Shown here piece by piece: positions 17,218 to 61,943 of a DNA stretch of 64,000 nucleotides; the first letter of the stretch is position 1; each line of letters starts with the position of its first letter. Origin of the DNA: a bacterium (GTDB lineage Bacteria; SAR324; NAC60-12); contig CBDDTI010000746.1 in assembly GCA_965233585.1 (NCBI GenBank), positions 32,001 to 96,000 on the forward strand, read 5' to 3'. The position numbers were made by a program, and so were the translations under genes. Under the pieces are notes generated by a model. That model was given only the letters and a program-made list of their open reading frames with translations, was not told where the DNA came from and ran no database searches.

Positions 17218-18119
17218 TGAAACGTGTTCAAATGACTCAAGACCTAAGTTTCAGCCGTCTAGTTTACGGAATGTGGAGACTTGCTGATGACACAGACACC
17301 AGCCCCGCACACATTCAAGCCAAAGTAGAAGCCTGCCTTGCACAAGGCATCACGACCATAGACCAAGCTGATATTTATGGGAATTATCAATCCCAAGTCA
17401 TTTTTGGAAAAGCCTTGAAAGATGCACCATCTTTGAGAAAGCAGATTGAAATTGTGAGCAAATGTGACATTGCAATCACCTCAGAAAAGTATCCTGAAAG
17501 ACGCCTCAAATACTATGACACAACGCCTGACTATCTCAATCATTCTGTGGATAATTCTCTAAAAGATATGGCAATAGACCAGCTGGATTTGTTCCTAATT
17601 CATCGCCCTGACCCGCTGATGGATCATCAGGCAACAGGTCAGGCACTTGATGATTTAGTGAAAAGTGGTAAGGTGAAAGCAGTTGGCGTATCTAATTTTA
17701 AGCCGTATGATTGGGAACTTTTGCAGTCTGGAATGAACACCCCGTTAGTCACCAATCAAATTGAAATGAGTGTTGTAGAGCATCACCCTTTGACGAATGG
17801 AGAAGTTGCCTTTCATCAAAGAAAAAAGACTCCTCTGATGGCTTGGTCTCCTTTGGCAGGAGGAGTGTTATTTGACGAGGCAAGACAGGATTTGAAAGAC
17901 TTGAGGGCTGTCTTGTCCCGTATTGCCAAAGAACAAGACGTAGAGTTGTCCAATGTAGCTATTGCTTGGCTTTTACATCACCCTGTTTGCATTTTACCTG
18001 TGCTTGGGACCAACAGCCTCAAACGTATCCAAAGCATTTCTGACGCTCTCAAAGTATCTTTTGACCGCCAAACATGGTTTGAAGTTTACACAGCCTCGCT
18101 TGGAAGAGACATTGCTTAA
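17214..18119 (+). CDS. aldo/keto reductase (YdhF-like)
   Basis: YGMWRL, DQADIYG, IHRPDPL, GVSNF; overlaps the upstream stop (ATGA). Confidence 0.9.
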   Translation: MMKRVQMTQDLSFSRLVYGMWRLADDTDTSPAHIQAKVEACLAQGITTIDQADIYGNYQSQVIFGKALKDAPSLRKQIEIVSKCDIAITSEKYPERRLKYYDTTPDYLNHSVDNSLKDMAIDQLDLFLIHRPDPLMDHQATGQALDDLVKSGKVKAVGVSNFKPYDWELLQSGMNTPLVTNQIEMSVVEHHPLTNGEVAFHQRKKTPLMAWSPLAGGVLFDEARQDLKDLRAVLSRIAKEQDVELSNVAIAWLLHHPVCILPVLGTNSLKRIQSISDALKVSFDRQTWFEVYTASLGRDIA

Positions 18120-18126
18120 CCCAATC

Positions 18127-18398
18127 GTCATTCTGTGCTTGATGCGGAATCCATCAGCAGTTAGATGATAGATTCCTGCTTCCGCTCCGAATGACAAAAA
18201 AAGAGGCAAGAATGACCAAAGACAACATGCAACCTTCCCAGTCATTCCGCACTTGATGCGGAATCTCTCACCAAACCAAGCATGGATTACTAACATGACT
18301 GGATTCCTGCTTCCGCTTCGAATGACAAAAAAAGAGGCAAGAATGACCAAATGCAACACAGCAAAATCCTCCTGTCATTGCGGGCTTGACCCGCAATC
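18127..18398. repeat. mosaic of GTCAT-type palindromic repeats
   Basis: GTCATTCTGTGCTTGATGCGGAATCC (18127), GTCATTCCGCACTTGATGCGGAATCT (18241), two GATTCCTGCTTCCGCTYCGAATGAC, GTCATTGCGGGCTTGACCCGCAATC (18374); internal direct duplication. Confidence 0.85.
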
Positions 18399-19997: not shown

Positions 19998-21091
19998 TCT
20001 ATTTTCCCCTAGTTTCTCCCGTTCCCAAAGGTTCTCTTTTTAAAAATTGCCTCTTCAGCATCTTCTCTTTCTCCTTCTTTCTACATCCTCCCATTCCCAA
20101 ACACATTCTTTTTACAAAAAAGACAAAAATTCCTTAAAAAACCAAAAAATTTCTTCAAAACCCTGAGGCGATGCTTGTTTTTTTTTTGTACGTGCATAGT
20201 ATTAGTTTGATTTTTTACAGAACTCTTGTTTTGAACTTGAAATTTTGTTTTTCTTTCAAGACAAGAGTTTTGCATGACAGCATTCTTTTTGCGGAGTGTT
20301 GTTGTTTGTTGATTTTTTCATTTGTTCATCTTGTTTAATTTTGTTTAATAGCTGAGTTTTTATGCAAAAGCTTATCAAGAACGTTATCGTTCATTTGGCA
20401 AATCATTTTCAGATCATGTCTGGTCTGGAGTTCAAAAACTTTTTCAAATTAGCATCTGTTTGTCTAGTGCTGTCGTTCACTTTGACAGGTTGTGGTTCTG
20501 GAGGAGGAGATAGCGGGGAGGCTTCTCAGGACATTGACAAAGAAGAGCAGTCAGGGACCCAGTGTTTGGGGATTCCCAAAGCGCTGACACAAGGCACTGG
20601 CAATCTGGCGATTTTCAATTCACTAGACACAAACGTCCTACTTTCATATTCCAACGAGCTGACTTCTGACGATGTGATTGCTGTCATTAAAGCCAAGCAA
20701 AATGGAGTGAAGGTGGACATTTCACAACGCACCTCTTCAACAGTCATGGTCTTTGGATTCAAAATGCCAGAAGTTAAGAACTATGTTTCAGCAGGCTGCG
20801 ATGCTTCCCAAATGCCAACTTCTTTTGTGCAAAGTGAGTTTATTCCCACAGCCGAATCTAGTTTTGTACTAGAAGCCAGCAATGAGAAACAAGATTATGG
20901 AACATTGCTGGTCAAAAACAATCGTTCTGGTCTGGTGTCTATTTTTCAAGGGAGTTCACAGAATAAGCAAATCGGAGTGGTTCAGGCTAAGCAGTTTGAC
21001 TATCGGATTCAACTGCCTGTTGGCTACAAGCAGCTGTTGTTCTATCTGCATAAGAAATCGGGGGGCATTGACTTCGAAAATCTTGTCTTTG

Positions 21092-21851
21092 GGCATTGTT
21101 AAGTAATAAGTGATAGCTGATTATTCCGTTTTGCCATGAACAAAAGAACAGAATATTGTAATGCTTTAAGAGACTTGCTGTAACATTTGGTTTTCCTTCT
21201 CATTCTTGCCAAGAAATGTCTCAAGAGAGAATTATACCCTTCTATCGTGTATGTTTCTGCCTTGGAACATGTATGAATTTCTTTGGGAATGACTTGTTTG
21301 TAAGCCTTGCAGTGATCAGTCATCACCTGAAGAGGTTTTGTTTCCTTGACCTTGTCCCATAAATGCCTACAGGCTTTTGAGTCTCTGTTTCCAAGCACAC
21401 AATTGATAAATTGCTTCCCACATCTATCAACAGCAATCCAGAGCCAGCAGTAGTTTTTTTTGACTGGATGTAGGTGTGCATTTCATCAATTTCCATAATT
21501 TCAATGTCTGTGTCCTTTCTTAATGCCTTGAGCTGTTCGCCAAAACTACAGACCCAATTATAAACTGAAACATGAGAACAATTCAGCAAACGACCGATTG
21601 ACCTGAAACCAAGACCCTCCAAATACAACTCTAATGCTCTTCTTTTGATCTGTGGTGAGATTTGACCACGATAGGACTTGGTATATTGATAGTTGCAGGC
21701 ATTGCAACGCCTCCTCGGTTTACCATATAAAAAACCATTCTTAACCGTCTTCTCACTTTCACATCTAGGACACAACTTCATTGCTACACCATGACTATCA
21801 ATTCAATTAAATGAACTTAATATCGCATATCACTTATAGTTTAACAATACC
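21092..21851 (-). mobile_element. IS1-family insertion sequence, 760 bp
   Basis: Terminal IRs GGCATTGTTAA / TTAACAATACC; 8-bp TSD TGTCTTTG at 21084-21091 and 21852-21859. Confidence 0.95.
21099..21781 (-). CDS. IS1 transposase, InsA/InsB joined by programmed -1 frameshift
   Basis: Zn ribbon CPRC..CNAC and HTH, EIDEMHTY, then TDHCKAY and IEGYNSLLRH; A8C slippery run at 21453-21461 on the minus strand. Confidence 0.9.
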
Positions 21852-24800
21852 TGTCTTTGCTAAAGATATGGTCTTTAACAAAGGAGAAGAGAAACTTGTG
21901 ATCATTCCTGAAAAAACACTGCTAGGTGGTGCTCAAATCAAGTTTCTTAATGCTTCTAAACAAAATGTGCTGCTCATGGTGAGAAAGAGTGACCAACCTT
22001 TGTATAATGTAGAATGCGGTTGTGATGCGTTTGGTGAGAAATCTCTTAAAGCCGTGACGATTTTGCTAGAGGAGAAGTATTATGCAGATGACTTCTTCTT
22101 TTCTGTCGTCAATCCCAAAACCAGTAAGACCTTAAAGGAGAGTCAACCTTTTCAGTTAAACAAGAAGACGAATGTGAAGTTTGAGCTAAAAGAAGATTTG
22201 ACTCTGGTCAAGACAGATTTGAACAAGGGCAAGGATGTTGTGTCAAATAAAAGACCCAGCACCCCGAGTGAAGTCAAAATCAGCGAGGTCAAAGCTAGCA
22301 GTGTCAAGGTCAGTTGGTCACCTTCTGCAGACCCTGATGGTCAGGTGACAGGCTATGAAGTCTCTTACAAGGAAAGCAGCGGGTCTTGGACTGGAACACA
22401 AACCACCGCTCAAACATCTTTGATTTTGTCTGGATTACAACCTGAAACCAGCTACACCTTCCGCATTCGTACCAAAGATGATGAAGATGCTTGGAGCGAT
22501 TATGCAGAAAGTGCTAGTGTCAAAACACCAGTCTCTGATAATCAACCCCCAAGCCAGCCAAGCAACATCAGCACCAGTCAAATCAGTGCTAGCAGCATCA
22601 CGGTCTCATGGGAGGCTTCAGTAGATTCTGATGGTTGGGTGACAGACTATGAAGTCTCTTACCAGAAAGACAATGGATTTTGGACAGGAACCAGCATAAC
22701 AAGTGCCAACACTTACACCTTTTACTCATTGCAGCCTGACACTGACTACACCTTCCGAGTCCGTGCTAAAGATGATGCAGGAGACTGGAGCGATTACCAG
22801 CAAAGCTCTGTTGTCAAGACTGCACCAGCCAAACCATCCAGCTTTTCTATTTCGGGCAGAACCTCAACTTTTAATACTGAATCAGGCAAGAGTTACGAAT
22901 GTAGCAAAGATGGAGGTGCAAACTTCACAGACTGCAACAGTCCCTTTACTTTTGGAGACAATGCCATTGACCAAGGCAAGCTCTGTGTCCGTGTCAAAGC
23001 CTCAGACAATGCTCCTGCTTCTGATTGGAGTTGTTACAGCCAAGCCATTGCTGCCAAACCCACCAAACCTAACGCACCAACTGGGTTGGCTATTTCAGGC
23101 AGAACCTTAACTTTTAATACTGAATCAGGCAAGAGTTACGAATGTAGTAAAGATGGGGGTGCAAACTTCACAAACTGCAACAGTCCCTTTACTTTTGGAG
23201 ACAATGCCATTGCCAAGAACAAGCTCTGCGTTCGTGTTAAAGCAGCAAGCAATACTCTTGTATCTGACTGGAGTTGCTACAGCCAAGCCATTGCTGCTAC
23301 TAACCAAACACCGAGCAAACCAAGCACCATCAGCACCAGCAACATTCAAAAAAACAGCATCAAGATCTCATGGTCTGCAGCAACAGATTCTGATGGAAGC
23401 ATTACAGGCTATCAAGTCTCTTACAAAGTAGGCTATTACGGGTCATGGACTGGAACGCAAACCACCACTCAAACCACTTACACTTTCAACAGTCTGCAAT
23501 CTAACACGACTTACACCTTCCGAGTCCGAGCCAAAGACAATGACAACGCTTGGAGTCCTTACAAAGAAAGCTCTGCTACCAAAACTCTCAACCAACCCCC
23601 GAGCAAACCAAGCACCATCAGCACCAGCAACATTCAAAAAAACAGCATCAAGATCTCATGGTCTTCGGCAAAAGATTCTGATGGAAGCATTGCAGGCTAT
23701 GAAGTCTCTTACAAGAAAGGGAGTGGAGCATGGACAGGCATCCAAACGACCAGCTGGAGAACTTACACTTTCTACAGTTTGAAGTCTAACACGACTTACA
23801 CCTTCCGAGTCCGAGCCAAAGACAATGATAACGCTTGGAGTCCTTACAAAGAAAGCTCTGCTACCAAAACTCTCAACCAACCCCCGAGCAAACCAAGCAC
23901 CATCAGCACCAGCAACATTCAAAAAACCAGCATCAAGGTCTCATGGTCTGCGGCAACAGATTCTGATGGAAGCATTGCAAGTTATCAAATCTCTTACAAA
24001 GTAGGCTATTACGGGTCATGGACTGGAACACAAACCACCACTCAAAACACTTACACTTTCAGCAGTTTACAATCTGACAAAGCCTACACCTTCCGAGTCC
24101 GAGCCAAAGACAATGACAACGCTTGGAGTTCTTACAGGCAAAGCTCTACTGTCAAGACAAAACCTACCAAACCATCTAACTTGGCTGTCTCAGCTTCAAG
24201 CAGGACTTTCACTTTTGCTAGAGTATCAGGTAAGAGTTATGAATGTAGCAAAGATGCAGGTGGCACTGCAAACGGCTGTAGCAGTCCCTTCAACTTTGGA
24301 GATGATGCCCTGGTTTCAGGCAAGTTGTGCGTACGTGTGAAGGCATCAGGCAATGCTCCTGCTTCTGACTGGGCATGTTACACAAAAACTGTTGCTGCTG
24401 CCAAGCCCCGTCTCTCTGGCATTGCTGGAAGAAAGTTGACTTTTACCACCGCTTCAGGACTGACTTATCAATGCTCTAAAAGTGGAGGCTCAAGTCCAAG
24501 CGACTGTAGCACTCCTTTCGCTTTTGGAGATGCTAGTATTGCCAAAGATACACTGTGTGTCCGTGTGAAAGCCAAAAACAACATTCCTGCTTCAGATTGG
24601 TCTTGCTACAACCGAGCCATTGCTCCTGCCAAACCCACTTCTCTTGCTCTCTCTGGCAGAACTTTAACTTTTGCCACTGCTTCAGGACTGATCTATCAAT
24701 GCTCTAAAAGTGGAGGTTCAAGTCCTAGCAACTGTCGTAGTCCATTTGCTTTTGGAGATGCTCCGATTCAAACGAGCAAATTATGTGTCCGTGTGAAAGC

Positions 24801-24858
24801 CAAAAGCAATATTCCTGCTTCAGATTGGTCTTGCTACAACGATCAATCTTTAACCAAA

Positions 24859-26615
24859 CAATGGTCTAAACTGCTTGGCACGAGCAGTTATGATGAAGGA
24901 AGAGGAGTGAGTGTAGATGCTTCTGGAAATGTCTACGTCACAGGAGACTCTGGGAATCGTGTGCTTTTAGCCAAGTATAACAGTTCAGGATTGCAACAAT
25001 GGTCTAAATCATTTGGCTCTGGCGATGGCTATGGAGTGAGTGTGGATGCTTCTGGAAATGTTTACGCAACAGGAGACTCTGGGAATCGTGTGCTTTTAGC
25101 CAAGTATTCTCCTTCAGGAGAGAAGCAGTGGTCTAAATCGTTTGGCACGAGCAGTTATGATTATGGATACGGAGTGAGTGTGGATTCTTCTGGAAATGTC
25201 TACGTCACAGGACGCTCTTATGGAGATTTTGACGGACACAGCAATTCAGGAAATTCAGACATGTTTTTAATCAAGTTTGGTGCTGCTTCTGCTTCAGTGG
25301 GCAAACCGAATGCACCCTCTGCTCTGGCACTTTCAGGCAGGACGTTCACTTTTGCTACTGCTTCAGGCAAGAGTTATCAATGTAGTCAAGATGGAGGTAC
25401 AAATGTCACTGATTGCAGCAGTCCTTTTAGTTTTGGAGATGCAGCCATTCAAGCAGGCAAGCTCTGTGTCCGTGTCAAAGCCACAGGTAGCGATCCTGCT
25501 TCAGATTGGTCTTGCTACAAGCAAACCATCTTTGATGCCCCACCGATTAAGCATTGGTCTATGCTACTTGGCACGAGCAGTGATGACAAAGGTAAGGCAG
25601 TGGCTTTGGATTCATCAGGCAATGTCTATGTCTCTGGCAACTTGGGTCAGGACATGGTTTTAACCAAGTATGACTCATCAGGCAACAAGCAATGGTCTCA
25701 GTCTGGCAATAGTGACGACTATGTAGAAGGAATCAGTGTGGATTCTTCTGGAAATATCTACGCAACAGGATACTCTAGCGGAGCTTTTGATGGACAAGTC
25801 AATTCAGGAAGTTCAGACATGTTTTTAATCAAGTATGACTCATCAGGGACTAAGAAGTGGTCTAAATTACTTGGCACTAGTGGTGATGATAGGGGACAAG
25901 GAGTGAGTGTAGATTCTTCTGGAAATGTCTACGTCACAGGATACTCTTATGGAGATTTTGACGGACACAGCAATTCAGGAAATTCAGACATGTTTTTAAT
26001 CAAGTATGACTCATCAGGGACTAAGAGTGGTCTAAACTGCTTGGCACGAGCAGTTCTGATTATGGATACGGAGTGAGTGTGGATGCTTCTGGAAATGTCT
26101 ACGTCACAGGACGCTCTTATGGAGCTTTTGACGGACACAGCAATTCAGGAAGTTATGACATGTTTTTAATCAAGTATAATTCATCAGGCACTAAGCAATG
26201 GTCTAAACTGCTTGGCACGAGCAATTATGATGTAGGATACGGAGTGAGTGTAGATTCTTCTGGAAATGTCTACGTCACAGGAAAATCTTGGAATCGTGTG
26301 CTTTTAGCCAAGTATAACAGTTCAGGATTGCAACAATGGTCTAAATCATTTGGCTCTGGCAATGGCTATGGAGTGAGTGTGGATTCTTCTGGAAATGTTT
26401 ACGCAACAGGATATTCTGGGCATGATGTGCTTTTAGCCAAGTATTCTCCTTCAGGAGAGAAGCAGTGGTCTAAATCGTTTGGCACGGGCAGTTCTGATGT
26501 AGGATACGGAGTGAGTGTGGATGCTTCTGGAAATGTCTACGTCACAGGATACTCTTATGGAGATTTTGACTCACACAGCAATTCAGGAAGTAATGACATG
26601 TTTTTAATCAAGTTT
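24859..26615 (+). repeat. intragenic SBBP propeller repeats; 420-bp block 24859-25278 duplicated at 26196-26615
   Basis: Recurring GGAGTGAGTGTRGATKCTTCTGGAAATGTYTACG, encoding GVSVD(A/S)SGNVY. Confidence 0.92.
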
Positions 26616-26651
26616 GAGAAGTAACCCCCTTTCTTGCTTGCTTTCAAACCT

Positions 26652-26808
26652 TGAGCTAAGTCGTTGCTTACCTTGACCTACCATCTCCTTTTTTTCTCAT
26701 TCCCAAGTCATGGCTCGCCCTGAGCTAAGTCGTTGCTTACCTTGACCCGCAATGACGGAGGAAGTGAGGAAAAGAGCAAACCGTCATTCCGTGCCTGACA
26801 CGGAATCT
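26652..26808. repeat. intergenic repeat mosaic
   Basis: TGAGCTAAGTCGTTGCTTACCTTGACC twice (26652, 26721) and GTCATTCCGTGCCTGACACGGAATCT (26783). Confidence 0.75.
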
Positions 26809-26950
26809 CAAAAAATGGAGTTGTTTAGGAAGTGGAGAAATCAGGGAACCTGAATAGGTCAGGAAATCATAAAAAAAGGCAAGGTAAGAAAAAACACCGC
26901 TTGTCAAAAGCATGTCCCAGTGAAAGTTTTGACAACTTGGCTCAAGAACC

Positions 26951-39129: not shown

Positions 39130-40882
39130 ATGGAAAATTTATCCGCAATCCGCAATCCGCAATCCGCAATCCGCAATCCGCAATCCGCAATCCGCAATCC
39201 GCAATCCGCAATCCGCAATCCGCAATCCGCAATCCGCAATCCGCAATCCGCAATCCGCAATCCGCAATCTATATAGGCTAAATCAGCTTTTTCAAAAGTC
39301 AAGACAAAAATCGCAAACTTTTTGCTTTTTTGTCAAAAAATTTCCTCATCTACTCAAACCTCACTTCTTCAAACTTTTTCTCGTTCCTCTCACTCTTTTT
39401 GTTTTTTCTGCTTGTGGTGAAGACACACCTTTTAAAAATGCCAAAGAAGAAGAAGCTCAAGAGTCCCAAACTAACCAAGAAGAAAAGACTCCAGATTTAT
39501 CGGGGGCGTCAACTTTTGTTGAAAAGAGGGCATTTACAGGCAATCAACATGGTTGTCCCAACGGGGGTGTAGAGCTTAAAATCGGCTTTGATTATGACAA
39601 CAATGGCAAGCTAGAAGGCAAAGAGCATGTCAGCACAGAATACATTTGTCATGGACGAGATGGACAAAAAGGAGACGCTGGAAAAGATGGACAAAAAGGA
39701 GATTCAGATCAAATTCTCATAGGTTCAAGCAAAATCAAAGACCCCAAGACAGGCAAACTTGTGACCAAAAATTACACCGTCAAAGAGATTGTCAACTTAA
39801 ATATCAGGTCAAAGGGAACGGCAGGAGAAAGACGTAATGCTGGTAGCACCGAATTTGCCCCCTATTTTTACGGCAACAAGTTGTACTATGACGACCCAGT
39901 TAAAGATGAAACTTCTGAAGTCCAAATCAATTTAGATGAGTCTTTAAGTAACAATGTCATGTTTAGTGCTATGAATAAGACGTTGATGTTGCTGAGGAAA
40001 ACAGGGGAGCTTTACGAACTCAAAGACGGACAAGCCAAACTTTTAGACACTCAAAATGACTTTAAAGACCTAAAGACGTCCTTTGTCAAAAGTAGTCCTG
40101 ACGGTTTTTATTTTACTGACAATAAGAATAACGGAGATAATCAGGTCTTCCAGTACGAAATCAATGCTAAACAATTAACCCAGCTCAAAGCAAACAATCA
40201 GCCCGTTGTAGCAAAACAAATAGCAACCAGTGGCTCAAGTCTCTATTACTCGCTTCATATTTCTGGTTCTGGAAGTTATGTCTATCATTATGACGTATCA
40301 GGGAGTCAGGAAGTTTTTAATGGAAGAGGTTATTATGGTTCCTATCATAGGTTGGTACACTTTAAGGGGGAGGTTTATTTTTCCGATGGAGACTCTTTAA
40401 ACAAAGTTTCAGGCAATTCTTCTGTTGAAATCTTGAAAGGTCAGACGTTTTCTTTATTCAAGAGCAGTGAGAAGCTGTGGACGGACCTAAAATTGACAGG
40501 CAATAAAATCCCAGCAGATTTGGTGGGTTTGGGACGATACATCATAAATAGACATGACTTTTCTACTCAATTTAACAATTCAATCTATTATGTTGATTTG
40601 GGATTGAATAAACTGCATGCTGATGGAACATATGAGACAATGACAAACTCTGGCGTAAATGGTGTGGGTTCTAGCCAAGATTATTTGTTTGTGAGTGTGA
40701 ATTCAGACAGAAGCCCTGCGTTATGGTTCAAGTCAAAAGATGGTGACTTTGTGCCTGTTGGGTCAGGTAGCAACTTTACGAAAGGTAGCAACTTAAAAGT
40801 AGTTGGTGATGTGGTTTATATCGTAGCGTCAAAAGGTGTGATGAAAGGCAGGGCGGTTTTTCGTTTTAAATTTAAAGATTGA
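39130..40882 (+). pseudogene. phase-variable surface lipoprotein, currently out of frame
   Basis: ATG 39130 reads into TAG 39274. The +1 frame is open from the repeat through lipobox FSA-C (39413), a CPNGGV..G.D.DNNGKL...C.G motif and short G-X-Y triplets into ORF 39761-40882. Confidence 0.85.
39141..39269 (+). repeat. perfect heptanucleotide SSR (ATCCGCA)18 plus ATC
   Basis: Counted directly; 18 uninterrupted units. Confidence 0.98.
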
Positions 40883-40964: not shown

Positions 40965-40997
40965 GCTTTCTTCTCTGCTTTGCATCCTTCAACGCTT

Positions 40998-41357
40998 CTA
41001 ACCCAGCACTTTCAAGAATCCAATAATAAAAATGGTAGAAGACAGAGTCAAACCCAAAGACCAGAACATAAAGCGATCCATTCTGGCATTGACCATCTCA
41101 AATCCCCTTTGCATATCCTCACGCAAGTCTTTCATATCTTTTTTCATGTCCTCACGGAGTTCTTTCATATCTTCACGCAAGTCTTTCATGTCTTAACGCA
41201 ATTCTACGTCAAGATGATGAAAGTGATTGGTCTGTGACTTGAGGATCATAATGAGCTTGTCATCTTGAGAAAGCGGTTCTTCACCTTTTCTCAATTTATC
41301 TAATACCCGCCTGCTTTCTTCTGCAAGATATTCATCAAAAATATTACTTTCAAACAT
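40998..41357 (-). pseudogene. coiled-coil membrane-anchored paralog E, nonsense mutation
   Basis: Near copy of 41803-42162 with CAA>TAA at 41193-41195. Confidence 0.88.
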
Positions 41358-41383
41358 AATTTATTTTTTACCTTTCAATGCTT

Positions 41384-41776
41384 TTAACCCAGCACTTTGA
41401 GAAATCCAATAATAAAAATGGTGGAAGACAAGGTCAAACCTAAAGACCAGAACATAAAACGGTCCATTCTGGCATTGACCATCTCAAATCTAGCATTGAC
41501 CATTTCAAATCCCTTTTTCATGTCCTCACGGAGTTCTCTATTTTCTTGTTTCATATCCTCACGGAGTTCTTTAATTTCTTGTTTCATATCCTCACGCAAG
41601 TCTTTCATGTCCTGACGCAACTCTACGTCAAGATGATGAAAATGATTGGTTTGTGATTTGAGAATCATAATGAGCTTGTCATCTTGAGAAAGCGGTTCTT
41701 CACCTTTTCTCAATTTATCTAATACCCGCTTGCTTTCTTCTGCAAGATATTCATCAAAAATATTACTTTCAAACAT
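41384..41776 (-). CDS. coiled-coil membrane-anchored paralog D (130 aa; Bdr/CCDC90-like architecture)
   Basis: Conserved head MFESNIFDEYL, EDMKELR-type repeats, C-terminal TM helix. Confidence 0.85.
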   Translation of the reverse strand: MFESNIFDEYLAEESKRVLDKLRKGEEPLSQDDKLIMILKSQTNHFHHLDVELRQDMKDLREDMKQEIKELREDMKQENRELREDMKKGFEMVNARFEMVNARMDRFMFWSLGLTLSSTIFIIGFLKVLG

Positions 41777-41802
41777 AATTTATTTTTTACCTTTCAATGC
41801 TT

Positions 41803-42162
41803 TTAACCCAGCACTTTGAGAAATCCAATAATAAAAATGGTGGAAGACAAGGTCAAACCCAAAGACCAGAACATAAAACGGTCCATTCTGGCATTGACCA
41901 TCTCAAATCCCCTTTGCATATCCTCACGCAAGTCTTTCATATCTTTTTTCATGTCCTCACGGAGTTCTTTCATATCTTCACGCAAGTCTTTCATGTCTTG
42001 ACGCAATTCTACGTCAAGATGATGAAAGTGATTGGTCTGTGACTTGAGAATCATAATGAGCTTGTCATCTTGAGAAAGCGGTTCTTCACCTTTTCTCAAT
42101 TTATCTAATACCCGCCTGCTTTCTTCTGCAAGATATTCATCAAAAATATTACTTTCAAACAT
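41803..42162 (-). CDS. coiled-coil membrane-anchored paralog C (119 aa)
   Basis: Same head, repeats and TM anchor as D. Confidence 0.85.
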   Translation of the reverse strand: MFESNIFDEYLAEESRRVLDKLRKGEEPLSQDDKLIMILKSQTNHFHHLDVELRQDMKDLREDMKELREDMKKDMKDLREDMQRGFEMVNARMDRFMFWSLGLTLSSTIFIIGFLKVLG

Positions 42163-42188
42163 AATTTATTTTTTACCTTTCAATGCTT

Positions 42189-42569
42189 TTAACCCAGCAC
42201 TTTGAGAAATCCAATAATAAAAATGGTGGAAGACAAGGTCAAACCTAAAGACCAGAACATAAAACGGTCCATTCTGGCATTGACCATCTCAAATCTAGCA
42301 TTGACCATTTCAAATCCCTTTTTCATGTCCTCACGGAGTTCTCTATTTTCTTGTTTCATATCCTCACGGAGTTCTTTCATGTCTTCACGGAGTTCTTTCA
42401 TGTCCTGACGCAACTCTACGTCAAGATGATGAAAGTGATTGGTTTGTGATTTGAGAATCATAATGAGTTTGTCATCTTGAGAAAGAGGCTCTTCGCCTTT
42501 TCTCAATTTGTCCAACACCCGCTTGCTTTCTTCTGCAAGATACTCATCAAAGATGTTACTTTCAAACAT
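42189..42569 (-). CDS. coiled-coil membrane-anchored paralog B (126 aa)
   Basis: Same architecture; FEMVNAR duplicated as in D. Confidence 0.85.
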   Translation of the reverse strand: MFESNIFDEYLAEESKRVLDKLRKGEEPLSQDDKLIMILKSQTNHFHHLDVELRQDMKELREDMKELREDMKQENRELREDMKKGFEMVNARFEMVNARMDRFMFWSLGLTLSSTIFIIGFLKVLG

Positions 42570-42596
42570 GATTTACTTTTTTACCTCCCGATACCT

Positions 42597-43109
42597 TTAA
42601 CCCAGCACTTTGAGAAATCCAATAATAAAAATGGTGGAAGACAAGGTCAAACCCAAAGACCAGAACATAAAACGGTCCATTCTGGCATTGACCATCTCAA
42701 ATCCTTTTTTCATATCCTCACGGAGTTCCTTATTTTCTCTTTGCATGTCCTCACGGAGTTCCTTATTTTCTCTTTTCATATCTTCACGGAGTTCTTTCAT
42801 GTCTCTTTGCATGTCCTCACGCAAATCTTTCATATCTCTTTGCATGTCCTCACGCAAGTCTTTCATATCTCTTTTCATATCCTCACGGAGTTCTTTCATA
42901 TCCTCACGGAGTTCTTTCATGTCTTCACGGAGTTCTTTCATATCCTCACGCAATTCCACGTCAAGATGATGAAAATGATTGGTTTGTGATTTGAGAATCA
43001 TAATGAGCTTGTCATCTTGAGAAAGAGGTTCTTCACCTTTTCTCAATTTATCCAACACCCGCTTGCTTTCTTCTGCAAGATACTCATCAAAAATATTACT
43101 TTCAAACAT
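42597..43109 (-). CDS. coiled-coil membrane-anchored paralog A (170 aa, longest stalk)
   Basis: Same architecture; 7-aa and 11-aa repeat units. Confidence 0.85.
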   Translation of the reverse strand: MFESNIFDEYLAEESKRVLDKLRKGEEPLSQDDKLIMILKSQTNHFHHLDVELREDMKELREDMKELREDMKELREDMKRDMKDLREDMQRDMKDLREDMQRDMKELREDMKRENKELREDMQRENKELREDMKKGFEMVNARMDRFMFWSLGLTLSSTIFIIGFLKVLG

Positions 43110-43210
43110 GGCTTTTCTACTGCAGGATCCGAATCATAGTTTTATTGAAGAAACTTTAAATTTGTAAAAGAAGTCTCTTGTGTCTAAAGTATCAATCATC
43201 AAAAGGGGTG

Positions 43211-43738
43211 TCAAATTTGAAGTTTTTTGTTTTCCAAATAGGCTTGCACTTGCTGTAATAAAATCATTTCCAGAGCAAGAATTATGGGAACAAAGGAATC
43301 AAGAGTTAAGGAAATACCAAACATGCCCAACTGCGACCCGCGATACATCGGGTCTTTGAGATATTGAAAAATGCCAGAATTGACCCAATCAGGCTCTGGT
43401 TTGACGAACAACCTCACTTTCATCACACGTCTCCAGCCAAGCTCACACCATGAAAGCCACATAAGACTAGCCCCACAACAGACCACAATCACCCCAATAC
43501 CCTGCAAAATCAAAGAATGATGCCACGCAACATGCTCCATTCTGACCAAAAGCCAAAGCAATAGCATTCCGACAACAATCCAAACACTGCCTAGTTGGAC
43601 GGCTGAAATGATGAATCCATGTTTTTGGAAAAGTCTTGAGTACACCTTCCAGCGAAGTTGAAAAAAGTAGGTGGTGATTTCGTGAATGATTCCAAATGCA
43701 ACCAATGCCATTGTTAAGGCGAGGTCTTGGAAGTTCAA
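43211..43738 (-). CDS. PEMT/ICMT-family membrane methyltransferase
   Basis: TM helices; SGIFQYLKDPMY motif. Confidence 0.75.
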   Translation of the reverse strand: MNFQDLALTMALVAFGIIHEITTYFFQLRWKVYSRLFQKHGFIISAVQLGSVWIVVGMLLLWLLVRMEHVAWHHSLILQGIGVIVVCCGASLMWLSWCELGWRRVMKVRLFVKPEPDWVNSGIFQYLKDPMYRGSQLGMFGISLTLDSFVPIILALEMILLQQVQAYLENKKLQI

Positions 43739-56216: not shown

Positions 56217-56539
56217 CAACCCTGCTCCGAAAAACCACTTGACTCCAGCAAACACCACACCAACTGAGGGAACAAGAAAGCAAAGAAAGTGAGAAAAAAA
56301 CAGAGGTTGAGGGTCAAGGTGAGCAATGACGAAAAGACACGCCTGCAAAACCTCCTGTCATTCCGCACTTGATGCGGAATCTATCATCAAACCCAGCATG
56401 GATTCCTAACGACTGGATTCCTGCTTTCGCAGGAATGACAATAGTTGTCATTCTGTGTTTGACACGGAATCTCAAAAAACAAGAGTGAGAGCAGAATGAG
56501 AGAAAAGGGCAGATTGTGTGGCAAGTTCAGCAATGCCAT

Positions 56540-57295
56540 TCAAGGTTCAATGACTTTGATTTGGTCTGCTTCAGGTTGCAGGAGGTAAATTCCTTTGGCT
56601 TTGGCATGAGAGATGAAATGTTCTGGAATGCTTTGACACGCAAGCCCCAGATGAATTTGAAAATCCTGATACTGCGGAAAAACGACAGGGAATGTCTCCC
56701 TGTGCCTGAACACTTGGTCAAAGTCATCAAGACGTAGTTTGTGCTTCACTTCTACAATGAAGATGTGAAAGTCATTGTAAAAAACAACGTCATACTGTCC
56801 CATGACTTTTTTATCGCTTCTCCCCTTCACATTTTTATCCACAGAATCATAACGAATTTGTCCAATCGTGATGAATCCTTGTTCTTCTATCTCTCTTTGA
56901 CCAGTACGATAGTAAGCGTCTTCCTGTATGTCGCTTTCTACCGTGATGTAACTTTCCAGCTTCTTGTTGCTTTCTTTTCTCAATCGTCTTTCTTCCTTCA
57001 TTTCTTTCTCCCAAGCGGCATTGCGTTCTAGCCTTTCTTTTTCCCATCTGGCATCGGACTCTTGCACCTGCTTCTCCCAAGCGGCATTGCGTTCTACTCT
57101 TTCTTTTTCCCATCTAGCACTGGACTCTTGCACCTGCTTCTCCCAAGCGGCATTGCGTTCTAGCCTCTCTTTTTCCCATCTGGCATTGGACTCTTGCATC
57201 TGTTTGGCGACAGCATTGACTGTGTCATTGGCTTCCTTAGCAATGATGCTAGCTTCCGCCAAAATTTTTTCTATTCTATCTAAACGTTCTGACAT
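56540..57295 (-). CDS. coiled-coil plus PD-(D/E)XK-domain paralog P5 (251 aa; DUF3782-like architecture)
   Basis: 11-aa repeats ERNAAWEKQVQ / ESSARWEKERV; QYD...IVEVK. Confidence 0.85.
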   Translation of the reverse strand: MSERLDRIEKILAEASIIAKEANDTVNAVAKQMQESNARWEKERLERNAAWEKQVQESSARWEKERVERNAAWEKQVQESDARWEKERLERNAAWEKEMKEERRLRKESNKKLESYITVESDIQEDAYYRTGQREIEEQGFITIGQIRYDSVDKNVKGRSDKKVMGQYDVVFYNDFHIFIVEVKHKLRLDDFDQVFRHRETFPVVFPQYQDFQIHLGLACQSIPEHFISHAKAKGIYLLQPEADQIKVIEP

Positions 57296-57725
57296 CTTTA
57301 CCTTTCAATTTAAAATTCAAAAAACTTGAGTATAGCATTTTTTGACAAAAGAAAAAAACAGATTGCGGGTCAAGGTGAGCAATGACAAGGAGACGATGGA
57401 ATAACGAAAAGACACGCCTGCAAACTCCTTTCGTCATTCCGCACTTGATGCGGAATCTATCAACAAAACCAAGCATGGATTCCTAACTTGACTGGATTCC
57501 TGCTTTCGCAGGAATGACAAGCCCACGCACGCAAGGTAGGGACAAACCCAAGTTTGTCCTGTGTTTGAAGAAGAATGAAATTGCGGGTCAAGCCCTCAAG
57601 GACTCTTCTGTCATTCCGTGCTTGACACGGAATCTATCATCAAACCAAGCGTGGATTCCTGCTTTCGCAGGAATGACAAGCCCACGCACGAAATGACAAG
57701 AAAGTGAGAAAAAACAGATTGCCCG

Positions 57726-58421
57726 TCAAGGCTCAATGATTTTGATGTGGTCTGCTTCAGGTTGCAGGAGGTAAACTCCCTTAGCTTTGGCATGAGAGAT
57801 GAAATGTTCTGGAATGCTTTGGCAAGCAAGTCCCAGATGAATTTGAAAATCCTGATATCGTGGAAACACGACAGGGAACGTTTCTTTGTGCCTGAACACT
57901 TGGTCAAAGTCATCAAGGCGAAGTTTATGCTTCACTCCTACAATGAAGATGTGAGAACGATTATAAAAAACAACGTCATACTGCCCAACTACTTTCTCAA
58001 ATCTTCCCTTCACATTTTTATCTACAGAATCATAAGCAACCCCACCAATCATGATGAATCCTTTTTCTTCTATTTCTCTTTGACCAGTACAATAGTAGGC
58101 ATCTTCCTGTATGTCGCTTTCTACCGTGATGTAACGTTCCAGTTTCTTGTTGGTTTCCTTTCTCAATCGCCTTTCTTCCTTCATTTCTTTCTCCCAAGCG
58201 GCATTGGACTCTTGCATCTGCTTCTCCCAAGCGGCATTGCGTTCTACTCTTTCTTTCTCCCAAGCGGCATTGCGTTCTTCTTGCTTTTTAGTCAGCTCTG
58301 CTAACTGCTTGCTGTTTTCTTCTTGTTGCTTGCTGTTTTCTTCTTGCCGTTTTTTCAACTCCTGCATGCCTTTGGCATTTTCTTTCAAAATTGCCCAAAT
58401 CTCATCAAATCTTTCACTCAT
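57726..58421 (-). CDS. paralog P4 (231 aa), EVK motif changed to GVK
   Basis: Same architecture; substitution at 57937. Confidence 0.83.
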   Translation of the reverse strand: MSERFDEIWAILKENAKGMQELKKRQEENSKQQEENSKQLAELTKKQEERNAAWEKERVERNAAWEKQMQESNAAWEKEMKEERRLRKETNKKLERYITVESDIQEDAYYCTGQREIEEKGFIMIGGVAYDSVDKNVKGRFEKVVGQYDVVFYNRSHIFIVGVKHKLRLDDFDQVFRHKETFPVVFPRYQDFQIHLGLACQSIPEHFISHAKAKGVYLLQPEADHIKIIEP

Positions 58422-58740
58422 CTTTATCTCCTTTCAATTTAAAATCTACAAGATAAAATATCTAGTCTAGCAGATTTTTTGAAAAAAGAATGAGAAAGAA
58501 GAACAAAAGAAAAAAAACAGATTGCGGGTCAAGCCCACAATGACGAGAAAACACAACCCTGCAAACTCCTTTCGTCATTCCGTGCTTGACACGGAATCTA
58601 TCATCAAACTAAGCGTGGATTCCTAACTTGACTAGATTCGGGGCTTTGGCAGGAATGACAAGGAGACGCCTGCAAGTCACAACGTAGGGACAAACCCAAG
58701 TGTTTGTCCTGTGTTTGAAGAAAAAAACAGAGATTGCCCG

Positions 58741-59382
58741 TCAAGGCTCAATGATTTTGATTTGGTCTGCTTCAGGTTGCAGGAGGTAAACTCCCTTAGC
58801 TTTGGCATGAGAGATGAAATGTTCTGGAATGCTTTGGCAAGCAAGTCCCAGATGAATTTGAAAATCCTGATATCGTGGAAACACGACAGGGAACGTTTCT
58901 TTGTGCCTGAACACTTGGTCAAAGTCATCAAGGCGAAGTTTATGCTTCACTTCTACAATGAAGATGTGAGAACGATTATAAAAAACAACGTCATACTGCC
59001 CAACTACTTTCTCAAATCTTCCCTTCACATTTTTATCTACAGAATCATAAGCAATCCCACCAAGCATGATGAATCCTTTTTCTTCTATTTCTCTTTGACC
59101 AGTACGATAGTAGGCATCTTCCTGTATGTCGCTTTCTACCGTGATGTAACTTTCTAGCTTTTTGTTGCTTTCTTTTCTCAATCGCCTTTCTTCCTTCATT
59201 TCTTTTTCCCAAGCGGCATTGGACTCTTGCATCTGCTTCTCCCAAGCGGCATTGCGTTCTTCTTGCTGTTTTGTTAGCTGTGCTAGCTGTTCATCCGTCT
59301 TTTCTTGCCGTTTTTTCAACTCCTGCATGCCTTTGGCATTTTCTTTCAAAATTGCCCAAATCTCATCAAATCTTTCACTCAT
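58741..59382 (-). CDS. paralog P3 (213 aa)
   Basis: Same architecture, shortest stalk. Confidence 0.85.
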   Translation of the reverse strand: MSERFDEIWAILKENAKGMQELKKRQEKTDEQLAQLTKQQEERNAAWEKQMQESNAAWEKEMKEERRLRKESNKKLESYITVESDIQEDAYYRTGQREIEEKGFIMLGGIAYDSVDKNVKGRFEKVVGQYDVVFYNRSHIFIVEVKHKLRLDDFDQVFRHKETFPVVFPRYQDFQIHLGLACQSIPEHFISHAKAKGVYLLQPEADQIKIIEP

Positions 59383-59702
59383 CTTTGTCCCCCTTTCAAT
59401 TTAAAATCTACAAGATAAAATATCTAGTCTAGCAGATTTTTTGAAAAAAGAATGAGAAAGAAGAACAAAAGAAAAAAAACAAATTGCGGGTCAAGCCCAC
59501 AATGACGAGAAAACACAACCCTGCAAACTCCTTTCGTCATTCCGCACTTGATGCGGAATCTATCACCAAACCAAGCGTGGATTCCTAACTTGACTAGATT
59601 CGGGGCTTTGGCAGGAATGACAAGGAGACGCCTGCAAGTCACAACGTAGGGACAAACCCAAGTGTTTGTCCTGTGTTTGAAGAAAAAAACAGAGGTTGAG
59701 GC

Positions 59703-60377
59703 TCAAGGTTCAATGACTTTGATTTGGTCTGCTTCAGGTTGCAGGAGGTAAACTCCTTTGGCTTTGGCATGAGAGATGAAATGTTCTGGAATGCTTTGGC
59801 ACGCAAGTCCTAGATGAATTTGAAAATCCTGATATCGTGGAAACACGACAGGGAATGTTTCTTTGTGTCTGAATACTTGGTCAAAGTCATCAAGGCGAAG
59901 TTTGTGCTTCACTTCCACAATGAAAATGTGAGAACGATTATAAAAAACAACGTCATACTGCCCAACTACTTTCTCAAATCTTCCCTTCACATTTTTATCT
60001 ACAGAATCATAAGCAACCCCACCAATCATGATGAATCCTTGTTCTTCTATTTCTCTTTGACCAGTACGATAGTAAGCGTCTTCCTGTATGTCGCTTTCTA
60101 CCGTGATGTAACTTTCCAGCTTCTTGTTGCTTTCTTTTCTCAATCGTCTTTCTTCCTTCATTTCTTTCTCCCAAGCGGCATTGCGTTCTAGCCTCTCTTT
60201 TTCCCATCTGGCATCGGACTCTTGCACCTGCTTCTCCCAAGCGGCATTGCGTTCTTCTTGCTTTTTAGTCAGTTCTGCTAACTGCTTGCTGTTTTCTTCT
60301 TGCCGTTTTTTCAACTCCTGCATGCCTTTGGCATTTTCTTTCAAAATTGCCCAAATCTCATCAAATCTTTCACTCAT
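59703..60377 (-). CDS. paralog P2 (224 aa)
   Basis: Same architecture; mosaic of the two sequence types. Confidence 0.85.
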   Translation of the reverse strand: MSERFDEIWAILKENAKGMQELKKRQEENSKQLAELTKKQEERNAAWEKQVQESDARWEKERLERNAAWEKEMKEERRLRKESNKKLESYITVESDIQEDAYYRTGQREIEEQGFIMIGGVAYDSVDKNVKGRFEKVVGQYDVVFYNRSHIFIVEVKHKLRLDDFDQVFRHKETFPVVFPRYQDFQIHLGLACQSIPEHFISHAKAKGVYLLQPEADQIKVIEP

Positions 60378-60649
60378 CTTTGTCCCCCTTTCAATTCAAA
60401 ATTTATAAATCCAAACACTTAGTCTAGCAGATTTCTTGAGAAAAAGAATGAGAAAGAACAACGCAAGGCAAAACAGATTGCGGGTCAAGCCCGCAATGAC
60501 AATCCTTGTTCATCAAACCAAGCGTGGATTCCTAACTTGACTAGATTCGGGGCTTTGGCAGGAATGACAAGGAGACGCCTGCAAGTCACAACGTAGGGAC
60601 AAACCCAAGTGTTTGTCCTGTGTTTGAAGAAAAAAACAGAGGTTGAGGC

Positions 60650-61393
60650 TCAAGGTTCAATGACTTTGATTTGGTCTGCTTCAGGTTGCAGGAGGTAAAT
60701 TCCTTTGGCTTTGGCATGAGAGATGAGATGTTCTGGAATGCTTTGACACGCAAGCCCCAGGTGAATTTTAAAATCCCGATATTGTGGAAAAACGACAGGG
60801 AAAGTTTCCCTGTGCCTAAACACTTGGTCAAAGTCATCAAGACGAAGTTTATGCTTCACTTCTACAATGAAGATGTGAAAGTCATTGTAAAAAACAACGT
60901 CATACTGTCCGATGACTTTTTTATCGCTTCTCCCCTTCACATTTTTATCTACAGAATCATAACGAATTTGTCCAATTATGATGAATCCTTGTTCTTCTAT
61001 TTCTCTTTGACCAGTACGATAGTAAGCGTCTTCCTGTATGTCACTTTCTACCGTGATGTAACTTTCTAGCTTCTTGTTGCTTTCTTTTCTCAATCGTCTT
61101 TCTTCCTTCATTTCTTTTTCCCAAGCGGCATTGCGTTCTAGCCTTTCTTTTTCCCATCTGGCACTGGATTCTTGTACCTGCTTCTCCCAAGCGGCATTGC
61201 GTTCTAGCCTCTCTTTTTCCCATCTGGCACTGGATTCTTGTACCTGCTTCTCCCAAGCGGCATTGCGTTCTTGCATCTGTTTTGCAAATTCTTCTTGCTT
61301 TTTAGTCAATTCTGCTAACTGCTTGCTATTTTCTTCTTGTTGTTTGCTATTTTCTTCCAAGATTTTTTCTATTCTATCTAAACGTTCTGACAT
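60650..61393 (-). CDS. paralog P1 (247 aa)
   Basis: Same architecture; GGAGAGG RBS. Confidence 0.85.
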   Translation of the reverse strand: MSERLDRIEKILEENSKQQEENSKQLAELTKKQEEFAKQMQERNAAWEKQVQESSARWEKERLERNAAWEKQVQESSARWEKERLERNAAWEKEMKEERRLRKESNKKLESYITVESDIQEDAYYRTGQREIEEQGFIIIGQIRYDSVDKNVKGRSDKKVIGQYDVVFYNDFHIFIVEVKHKLRLDDFDQVFRHRETFPVVFPQYRDFKIHLGLACQSIPEHLISHAKAKGIYLLQPEADQIKVIEP

Positions 61394-61943
61394 TTGTACC
61401 TCTCCAATTGAAGATTATTAAGTTTAAACACACTCAGTCTAACAGATTTTTGAAAAAAAGAATTACAGAAGAATGAGAAAGAAAACAAAATAAGAGTAAG
61501 AAAAAAGAGAGATTGCTGGACAAGACACGCCTGCAAATTCCTCTGTCATTCTGCACTTGATGCGGAATTTATCACCAAACCAAGCATGGACTCCTGCTTT
61601 CGCTCCGAATGACGGAAACACAAGCCCGCAAGTTACAACGTAGGGACAAACCCAAGTTTGTCCTGTGTTTTAAGAAGAATGAGATTGCGGGGTCAAGCCC
61701 GCAATGACGGGAACACAAACACGCGATGACAAGGAGACGCACGCAAGTTACAACGTAGGGACAAACCCAAGTGTTTGTCCTGTGTTTTAAGAAGAATGAG
61801 ATTGCATGTCAAGGTGAGCCATGACTACCCCGTCATTCTGTGCTTGATGCGGAATCTATCACCAAACTCAGCATGGATTCCTAAACGTGACTGGATTCCT
61901 GCCTTCGCAGGAATGACATTTTTCAAACCTGCAATGACAAACG

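Follow-up and report, generated by a model that had tools for sequence, protein, structure and literature searches.

In fungal NOD-like receptors (NLRs) of the HET-D/HET-E/NWD type, the WD40, ANK and TPR repeats combine conserved units with a small number of hypervariable binding-surface positions, and the available portions of Dyrka et al. (2014, PMC4986451, citing Paoletti 2007 and Chevanne 2010) report concerted evolution, reshuffling of units inside a gene and among paralogs, and positive selection for them. Bacterial NLRs carry WD and TPR repeats with 80-90% internal identity, according to the excerpts available of Dyrka et al. (2020, bioRxiv 10.1101/2020.01.06.895854), and the passages available of Hu et al. 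(2017, PMC5587647) describe prokaryotic highly repetitive (HR) WD40 proteins as having a recent origin, low synonymous divergence, and mostly conserved sites alongside diverse predicted interaction hot-spots. Here we describe two near-identical blocks of SBBP beta-propeller blades in a very large lipoprotein gene of a bacterium, found within a stretch of 64,000 nucleotides (contig CBDDTI010000746.1, positions 32,001 to 96,000; hereafter the window, whose own numbering is used throughout). By analogy, the evolutionary regime is one already known from fungal NLR and prokaryotic WD40 repeats, seen here in another repeat family on a putative secreted lipoprotein. An initial annotation of the window had likened the blocks to HET-D/HET-E repeats, with a homogenized framework and a few fast codons, and that likeness fits. 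It had also offered the locus as an undescribed system, which overstates the case, since the same regime is published for the fungal NLR and prokaryotic HR WD40 repeats.

The resemblance to the fungal repeats, as far as the accessible text describes them, lies in near-identical units with hypervariable codons on the predicted binding surface. The locus differs from them in that its repeats are SBBP rather than WD40, ANK or TPR, its host is a bacterium, and its product is a putative secreted lipoprotein with FN3 domains rather than a cytoplasmic STAND NTPase; the pattern is also known here from pairwise counts in one gene and not from an allele series or repeat-number polymorphism. With the prokaryotic HR WD40 proteins, as the accessible passages present them, the locus shares bacterial propeller repeats that are recent and mostly conserved but have diverse hot-spot sites. 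Those proteins and the bacterial NLRs, in the same passages, are WD40 or TPR proteins that are mostly intracellular and signalling or NLR-like, whereas here the repeats belong to paralogous SBBP lipoproteins, and the passages mention no contrast of zero silent to 19 replacement differences. High internal conservation may be defined as a mutual identity of at least about 70-85% among the repeat units of a protein; blocks A and B reach this level, as do the single blades A3, B3 and C4, whereas blades C1 and C2 are more divergent. Repeat-induced point mutation is a proposed mutagenic contributor in fungi, and it is without counterpart in this bacterium.

Blocks A and B differ only by amino acid replacements

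Block A (24859-25278) and block B (26196-26615) align over 420 columns with zero gaps in MAFFT. Their 30 differing bases fall in 19 of the 140 codons, and by codon count all 19 alter the amino acid while none is purely synonymous, just as the initial annotation had counted. The differences are distributed 15/10/5 over codon positions 1, 2 and 3, and a third-position difference is always accompanied by one at position 1 or 2 of the same codon. Each of the multi-base swaps listed earlier (AGA/TAC, GAC/AAA, TAT/GTA, CGC/TAC and TCA/AAT) is present, and 11 of the 19 differing codons carry a single-base change. A Nei-Gojobori count (S=95.3, N=324.7, sd=2.25, nd=27.75) yields 2.25 "synonymous" steps, all of them from within multi-hit codons. 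The two proteins are identical at 121 of 140 residues, and neither block contains a stop codon or an indel. The changed sites had also been called rich in tryptophan, which in fact occurs once among the 38 residues at the differing positions.

This replacement-only contrast is genuine and goes beyond chance. Under random mutation, the probability of finding no synonymous change in 19 codon events is 0.0075. Two pairs of repeats from the same gene served as controls: FN3 copies 3 and 5, which differ by 28 bases over 95 codons (5 synonymous and 16 non-synonymous codons), and four-cysteine domains 1 and 2, which differ by 42 bases over 81 codons (11 synonymous and 20 non-synonymous). FN3 copy 4 was left out, being out of register after an indel. 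At the synonymous share of these controls (16/52), the binomial probability of 0 in 19 falls to 0.0009, and a Fisher exact test of 0/19 in the blocks against the pooled 16/36 of the controls gives p=0.0039. The count of zero is strictly true inside the block only, because the two codons directly upstream (T-K), which are conserved as protein, both differ synonymously (ACC AAA vs ACT AAG).

The blocks belong to a large putative lipoprotein gene, apparently interrupted twice

The gene and the elements within it are laid out as follows.

20362..21091, plus strand: 5' part of the original gene, now a separate open reading frame (ORF) of 246 aa ending at 21102, with a putative lipoprotein-type leader and N-terminal region
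21092..21851, minus strand: IS1-family insertion of 760 bp, which splits the lipoprotein leader from the rest of the gene
21811..26076, plus strand: annotated ORF P0001, 1421 aa, with five FN3 domains, seven four-cysteine domains (81 aa) and SBBP blades A1-A3 and C1-C3
24859..25278, plus strand: block A, made up of blades A1 (24859-24996), A2 (24997-25125) and A3 (25126-25278), between four-cysteine domains 6 and 7
25552..26024, plus strand: blades C1-C3, which open the C-terminal set of seven blades, after cysteine domain 7
26023..26027 (approximately), plus strand: frameshift, where blade C4 lacks one base of its first codon, as judged from the equivalent junction at 26190-26198
26025..26195, plus strand: blade C4, in frame +2, with the same framework as A3 and B3
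26196..26615, plus strand: block B, made up of blades B1 (26196-26333), B2 (26334-26462) and B3 (26463-26615)

The 5' fragment (20362-21102) and the ORF from 21811 have a common reading frame (offset 1449 = 483x3), and the leader of the fragment, ...LSFTLTGCGSGG, is hydrophobic and a putative lipoprotein signal, its lipobox judged by eye and unscored. A Pfam scan of P0001 gave FN3-type (fn3, E=4.9e-69) and SBBP-type domains (PF06739, 152.2 bits, E=3.4e-45, gathering cut-off 20.5) only, with no NACHT or NB-ARC STAND NTPase. The ORF that carries block B (26073-26624) matches PF06739 as well (99.3 bits, E=1.1e-28). Read in register, the gene has ten blades in the order A1-A3, cysteine domain 7, C1-C4, B1-B3. 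Block A ends in ...LIKFG, and block B in ...LIKFEK, its final two codons (EK) standing after the block and before the stop codon at the gene end, 26624; paralogs end in ...LIKFGR or ...LIKFGK. In the paralogs a single cysteine domain leads into a propeller that mostly has seven blades, and the LIKFG ends match, which identifies each block as blades 5-7 of a module: the gene, a very large one of the SBBP (LipL53-like) lipoprotein type, contains two such propeller modules in tandem, one ending in block A and the other in block B. On its sequence, the first module appears either to have lost blades 1-4 or never to have had them.

The 81-aa four-cysteine domain occurs in seven copies between 22831 and 25551 (e.g., 22831-23073), stands ahead of each propeller module, and is also found in the paralogs. 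Its pattern is ...SGRTLTF..SGKSYECSKDGG...C.SPF.FGD.AI...KLCVRVKA...ASDWSCY. It has zero Pfam matches at E<=0.1, and AlphaFold predicts a small beta domain with a predicted local distance difference test (pLDDT) score of about 60-78.

Two lesions in this gene copy had escaped the initial annotation. The first is the IS1-family element, whose ends are 24-nt inverted repeats (21092-21115 and 21828-21851, 83% complementary) and which is flanked by a target duplication, a perfect 8-bp direct repeat, TGTCTTTG, at 21084-21091 and 21852-21859 (spacing 768 nt). Its transposase is encoded by two overlapping minus-strand ORFs, 21323-21781 and 21099-21398, the first of which matches the IS1 transposase family NF033558 (E=6.5e-27) at 94.8 bits, slightly under the 100-bit cut-off. 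Split, overlapping transposase ORFs are usual for IS1 frameshifting. The second lesion is the 1-base frameshift, at which the blade starts change from frame 0 to frame 2, putting the four blades from C4 to B3 into frame +2; the missing base may be genuine or may have been lost in assembly. With both the IS1-family insertion and the frameshift, the gene copy appears broken twice, and its present-day function is therefore doubtful. As the copy is now interrupted, the diversification predates its present state.

Paralogs, related propellers and host

Protein searches returned eight likely paralogs, probably of the same genome, on contigs of 830719, 1073512 and 620666 nt. They are putative lipoproteins in which a single four-cysteine domain goes with seven blades in most cases, and they have the same blade framework and the same variable columns as the window gene. 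Several have hydrophobic leaders ending in ...TGC or ...VAC (by eye), putative lipoprotein signals. No close ortholog of the gene emerged from these protein searches, the best non-self match being 55% identical; contigs of GTDB-representative genomes gave 22 matching loci, the best of them 45% identical. For the gene and for 6/6 paralogs scanned, LipL53 (NF047494) ranks first among the NCBIfam families, with scores of 152.6 for P0001 and 144.6-379.8 for the paralogs (best P0123), all below the 400-bit equivalog cut-off. The gene resembles the LipL53 family in encoding an SBBP beta-propeller on a putative lipoprotein, and differs in its extra FN3 and four-cysteine domains and its sub-cut-off scores. 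LipL53 of Leptospira, the subject of work by Oliveira and colleagues in 2010, is said to be temperature-regulated and to bind extracellular matrix.

In fold and sequence the blades also resemble the C-terminal seven-bladed propeller of CylK (PDB 7fh6, 7ron), the PknD sensor (1rwi) and the designed "Pizza" propellers. For the model of paralog P0122 the top PDB match is the CylK propeller at E=2e-30, with a template modelling (TM) score of 0.69 and a root mean square deviation of 1.6 A over 400 columns at 33% identity, and by sequence the hits were to CylK (4.9e-47), Pizza and PknD (1.8e-14). CylK, however, has an extra N-terminal domain and acts as an enzyme, and the six-bladed PknD propeller is the sensor of a kinase. 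PknD is described in the accessible part of a review as a highly symmetric propeller with a central "cup" proposed as its ligand site. A limited literature search found no description of CylK or PknD as diversifying paralog families.

The PNPase encoded at 194-2260 on the minus strand is 59-62% identical to proteins of the SAR324 cluster and of "Deltaproteobacteria bacterium TL4", and the PNPase of another contig is 88% identical to it. Because this PNPase is closest to SAR324-cluster proteins, the host is taken to be an environmental bacterium and not Leptospira. Judging from these sequence matches, its lineage is sparsely sampled, and it is absent from the collection of GTDB-representative genomes searched.

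Silent differences and the age of the copy

Blocks A and B are related by copying. Silent markers that separate blades 1, 2 and 3 from one another are common to A and B, at columns 1 (CAA/CAG), 5 (TCA/TCG), 14 (GGA/GGC), 19 (GTA/GTG) and 25 (GTC/GTT) of the blade alignment described below, and the similarity of A and B breaks off sharply at both block ends. Other blades of the gene allow the replacement-only contrast to be placed in time. Blades A3, B3 and C4 mutually differ at 8-10 of 51 codons, and again without silent change in the comparisons with C4 (0 synonymous and 9 non-synonymous codons for A3, 0/10 for B3). Blade A1 compared with C1 has 10 synonymous and 20 non-synonymous codons, and C3 shows 2-4 synonymous differences. 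By their many synonymous differences, C1 and C2 would be older, more divergent copies. In distant SBBP genes, the closest blade pairs give synonymous/non-synonymous counts of 8/13 (L001) and 15/13 (L002), and because these are ordinary mixtures, the contrast reflects recency and is not a general property of SBBP repeats. A striking excess of replacement over silent differences can come from a very recent blade copy together with exchange between blades, without a special mutator.

The differences concentrate at one end of the predicted propeller

To place the differences on the blade, we aligned the ten blades of the window and those of the eight paralogs in a 57-column frame and computed the entropy of each column from 51 of the 52 paralog blades, leaving out P0229_b5, which the pattern could not split. 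The initial annotation had noticed that changes recur at the same blade positions, and those columns are indeed hypervariable among the 51 paralog blades. Mean paralog entropy is 2.30 bits at the 19 positions that differ between A and B and 0.85 bits at the 121 unchanged positions (Mann-Whitney p=1.5e-5).

AlphaFold models were made for paralog P0122 and for the four-blade piece of the window from C4 to B3 (26025-26617), rather than for the read-through ten-blade protein. P0122 has a mean pLDDT of 83.3, rising above 90 in the propeller, and shows seven blades of four strands; the C4-B3 piece reaches a pLDDT of 93.1 and a predicted TM score of 0.89. Both models agree on the strand columns (57-6, 11-19, 25-31 and 44-51), which puts loops 7-10 (D-A) and 32-43 (B-C) at one end of the blade and turns 20-24 (A-B) and 52-56 (C-D) at the opposite end. 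Such an arrangement, in an up-and-down four-stranded sheet, is usual for propellers; those of WD40 proteins have their "top" face at the D-A / B-C end. The initial annotation expected the differing sites to map to one face, and for 16 of the 19 this is what the models predict: they lie at the D-A / B-C end, in columns 9, 10, 11, 13, 15, 30, 37, 43, 44 and 45. The expectation fails for the other three: these are Ala/Ser toggles, one per blade, at column 21, which lies at the opposite end, in the A-B turn. In the C-D turn, columns 53 and 56 have paralog entropies of 2.29 and 1.90 bits, yet none of their four codons changed between A and B.

The rates at these sites can be set against the silent sites of the same blocks. 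Eleven top-end hypervariable columns contain 25 codons, of which 14 differ between A and B (pN=0.33), while the remaining 115 codons have 83.3 silent sites and 0 silent changes, giving a 95% upper bound on pS of 0.035. Were the rate at silent sites equal to that of the hypervariable codons, all of them would have stayed unchanged with a probability of 1.3e-12. Codons with 0, 1, 2 and 3 changed bases number 11, 8, 3 and 3 among the 25, compared with 8.3, 11.1, 4.9 and 0.7 expected for independent changes. Because these counts are near the independent expectation, most of the multi-base swaps need no special process. The three fully replaced codons, for which 0.7 are expected, sit in the top-entropy paralog columns 13, 15 and 44.

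Probable recent copying followed by diversification

We consider it reasonably probable (about 0.6) that a cassette was duplicated or converted very recently, giving rise to the blocks, and that diversifying selection for binding specificity, with reshuffling of repeats, then acted on them. A segmental duplication or gene conversion, ending sharply at blade boundaries, would have put a copy of one block in place of the other so recently that silent sites are still undiverged. Since then, changes would have fallen mostly in codons of the D-A loop and the start of strand A and of the end of strand B and the B-C loop, which share one blade end around the putative ligand-binding face of the propeller. 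These variable codons would have changed at a rate at least about nine times that of silent sites. Diversifying selection on binding specificity would be the most likely driver, perhaps helped by exchange of short stretches among near-identical blades, which would be hidden in the common framework and visible at the variable codons. The sequences and models show that the blocks are copies, that silent change is absent, that the differences keep to columns hypervariable throughout the family and mostly to loop ends, and that blades share codon states in conflicting ways; that selection drove the changes, that a ligand is bound, and which of the blocks is the derived one are parts of this account that we infer.

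Several observations weigh against this account. The argument for selection comes from a pairwise contrast, in one block pair plus blade C4 from one assembly, and block B is out of the annotated frame. The double interruption of the gene fits badly with strong ongoing selection, unless both lesions are of very recent date or the frameshift was introduced in assembly. Block A has three blades between two cysteine domains, too few to close a propeller alone. The face assignment follows from secondary structure and sheet topology, not from coordinates or solvent exposure, and the binding-face view leaves the column-21 Ala/Ser toggles, in a column of low entropy (0.32 bits), unexplained. Finally, the excess of fully replaced codons may favor templated swaps over stepwise mutation, and codon states whose 15-mers are unique to one place in the window would have come either from new mutation or from paralog donors outside the window.

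Probable exchange between blades

Repeat shuffling had been suggested for this locus, and conflicting 2+2 groupings together with multi-base states common to non-equivalent blades now speak for it. Among blades A3, B3, C3 and C4, all three possible 2+2 groupings are present: one at columns 6 and 51, one at columns 21 and 43, and one at column 30, where the difference is the two-base CGC/TAC. Blades B1 and B3 have in common the 15-mer GTAGGATACGGAGTG (a V-G-Y stretch), which is not in A1 or A3, and the B-C loop is identical in A1 and A2 but different between B1 and B2. From the sequences, this conflicting sharing of codon states points to blade-to-blade exchange, with parallel change possible in the single-base columns. 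Block B seems more derived than block A, or else block A has been more strongly homogenized: 15-mers that recur in other blades of the window cover 13/19 block-A states and 5/19 block-B states, and 15-mers without a second copy in the window 6/19 and 14/19, respectively. Donor blades had been looked for elsewhere in the window and were not found, blade-like repeats (families D9, D10 and D16) occurring only at 24856-26616.

These observations bear most directly on templated mosaicism, in which short conversion tracts from near-identical blades, in this gene and in at least eight paralogs, overwrote the variable codons. Such a process would require neither new mutation nor selection for novelty, and silent differences would be absent because donors and recipients have the same framework. 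As the sole source of the pattern we regard it as unlikely, although it survives better than the other alternatives. The incompatible groupings, one of them involving a two-base difference, are what it predicts, and so are the recurring 15-mers, the stretch common to B1 and B3, the shared loop of A1 and A2, and the three fully replaced codons. It also accommodates the one unavoidable silent step within a variable codon (GAC/TAT), and reshuffling of repeat units is reported for fungal NLR repeats in the accessible portions of the literature cited above. The tracts, however, would have to be very short (that of B1 and B3 lies within columns 12-18, as columns 11 and 19 differ), most of the block-B 15-mers are unique within the window, and more than half of the differences are single-base. 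Exchange alone also leaves the family-wide existence of the variable columns unexplained.

Artefacts, mutators and drift

It is improbable that the pattern is an artefact of assembly or polishing, with reads of near-identical blades mixed into chimeric blocks and the frameshift likewise an error. The region is highly repetitive, the 1-base indel falls at a blade junction, and databases have the protein once only, from the same contig of 830719 nt, which gives no independent confirmation. Mixing of reads, however, would not give replacement-only differences with blade-specific silent markers kept in register; the frames are open in both blocks, the four-blade piece folds at a pLDDT of 93, and the same variable columns appear in paralogs on other contigs.

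A targeted mutator that writes the variable codons, either a diversity-generating retroelement with an adenine-mutagenized template or an unknown enzyme, had been put forward in the initial annotation and is highly improbable. Diversity-generating retroelements and cassette variation of the vlsE/tprK type produce variable codons in an invariant framework with multi-base codon differences, and the locus resembles them in its variable codons, fixed framework and multi-base swaps. A mutator would explain why changes are limited to a few codons, are multi-base, and leave nothing silent elsewhere, with third-position changes inside variable codons only. However, a scan of 51 ORFs (49 of at least 150 aa and the gene's two ORFs, with smaller ORFs and the remaining genome unscanned) found zero reverse-transcriptase families, and the window holds no third copy usable as a template. 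Adenine stands at 9/30 differing sites in block A, or 10/30 in block B, where a template model needs all of them, and 104 adenines are the same in both blocks, which is unexpected for two variable repeats of one template. A mutator of the retroelement type is disfavored because none of the scanned ORFs of the window is a reverse transcriptase and the changes are not adenine-directed; an adenine-only template, sought in the window and not found, was rejected for these reasons. Unlike vlsE/tprK systems, the gene has no array of silent partial cassettes beside it in the window, although full-length paralog genes exist elsewhere.

Relaxed constraint, with loop residues drifting freely and no selection, has in its favor that the variable columns are loops tolerating many residues across paralogs and that the gene copy is broken, but drift in unconstrained loops is excluded because it cannot outpace silent sites, which are unchanged (0/83.3) while the variable codons changed (pN 0.33, P=1.3e-12), and the blocks have neither stops nor indels and left the variable C-D-turn columns untouched.

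Implications

A limited open-access search found no report on the evolution of SBBP repeats or on a hypervariable regime in SBBP or LipL53-like proteins. If recent copying with diversifying selection were confirmed genome-wide, a regime known from intracellular WD40, ANK and TPR receptors in fungi and in some bacteria would extend to extracellular SBBP lipoproteins in a poorly known lineage. It would also imply unknown, fast-changing ligands, for example, particles, glycans, prey, hosts or phages, and would provide a seven-blade scaffold of natural origin, consensus-like and variable at defined positions, that is near the designed "Pizza" propellers in sequence. A broader and rather doubtful reading is that the SAR324-related bacterium keeps at least nine LipL53-like propeller lipoproteins as a diversifying set of extracellular receptors, with blades copied and swapped within and between genes and top-face residues renewed at a pace that leaves silent sites unchanged. 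Were this true, the set would be a surface-exposed bacterial counterpart of the diversification of fungal NLR repeats or of lamprey variable lymphocyte receptors, and it might involve a dedicated exchange mechanism and switching by insertion of IS elements and short-repeat phase variation.

Other features of the window

At 39130-40882, the heptanucleotide ATCCGCA is repeated in 18.4 perfect copies (39141-39269) right after the ATG at 39130. The lipoprotein-like frame behind the repeat, which runs into the ORF at 39761-40882, is one base out of frame at this copy number, and from its sequence the repeat looks like a phase-variation switch. The leader that begins at 39130, MENLSAIRNP...YRLNQLFQKS, resembles the leader of SBBP paralog P0199.

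A palindromic element resembling repetitive extragenic palindromic (REP) sequences, with the core GTCATTCCGCACTTGATGCGGAATC, is present in at least nine copies (family D13), mostly intergenic, at 18101-18291, 26770-26810 and 56331-61882, and REP-like sequence also lies immediately downstream of the SBBP gene. On the minus strand, 56540-61393 contains five tandem paralogous genes for proteins of 213-251 aa without a Pfam family, which are 79-96% identical over stretches of about 300 nt and have repeated intergenic modules between them. Also on the minus strand, 40979-43211 holds arrays of 33-nt and about 400-nt repeats and encodes a heptad/undecad-like protein (...MKDLREDMKE...) with weak apolipoprotein-like matches. 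A kelch-repeat propeller protein is encoded at 61944-63998 on the minus strand, with 141-nt tandem repeats at 62691-63554, and is probably the kelch finding of the initial annotation.

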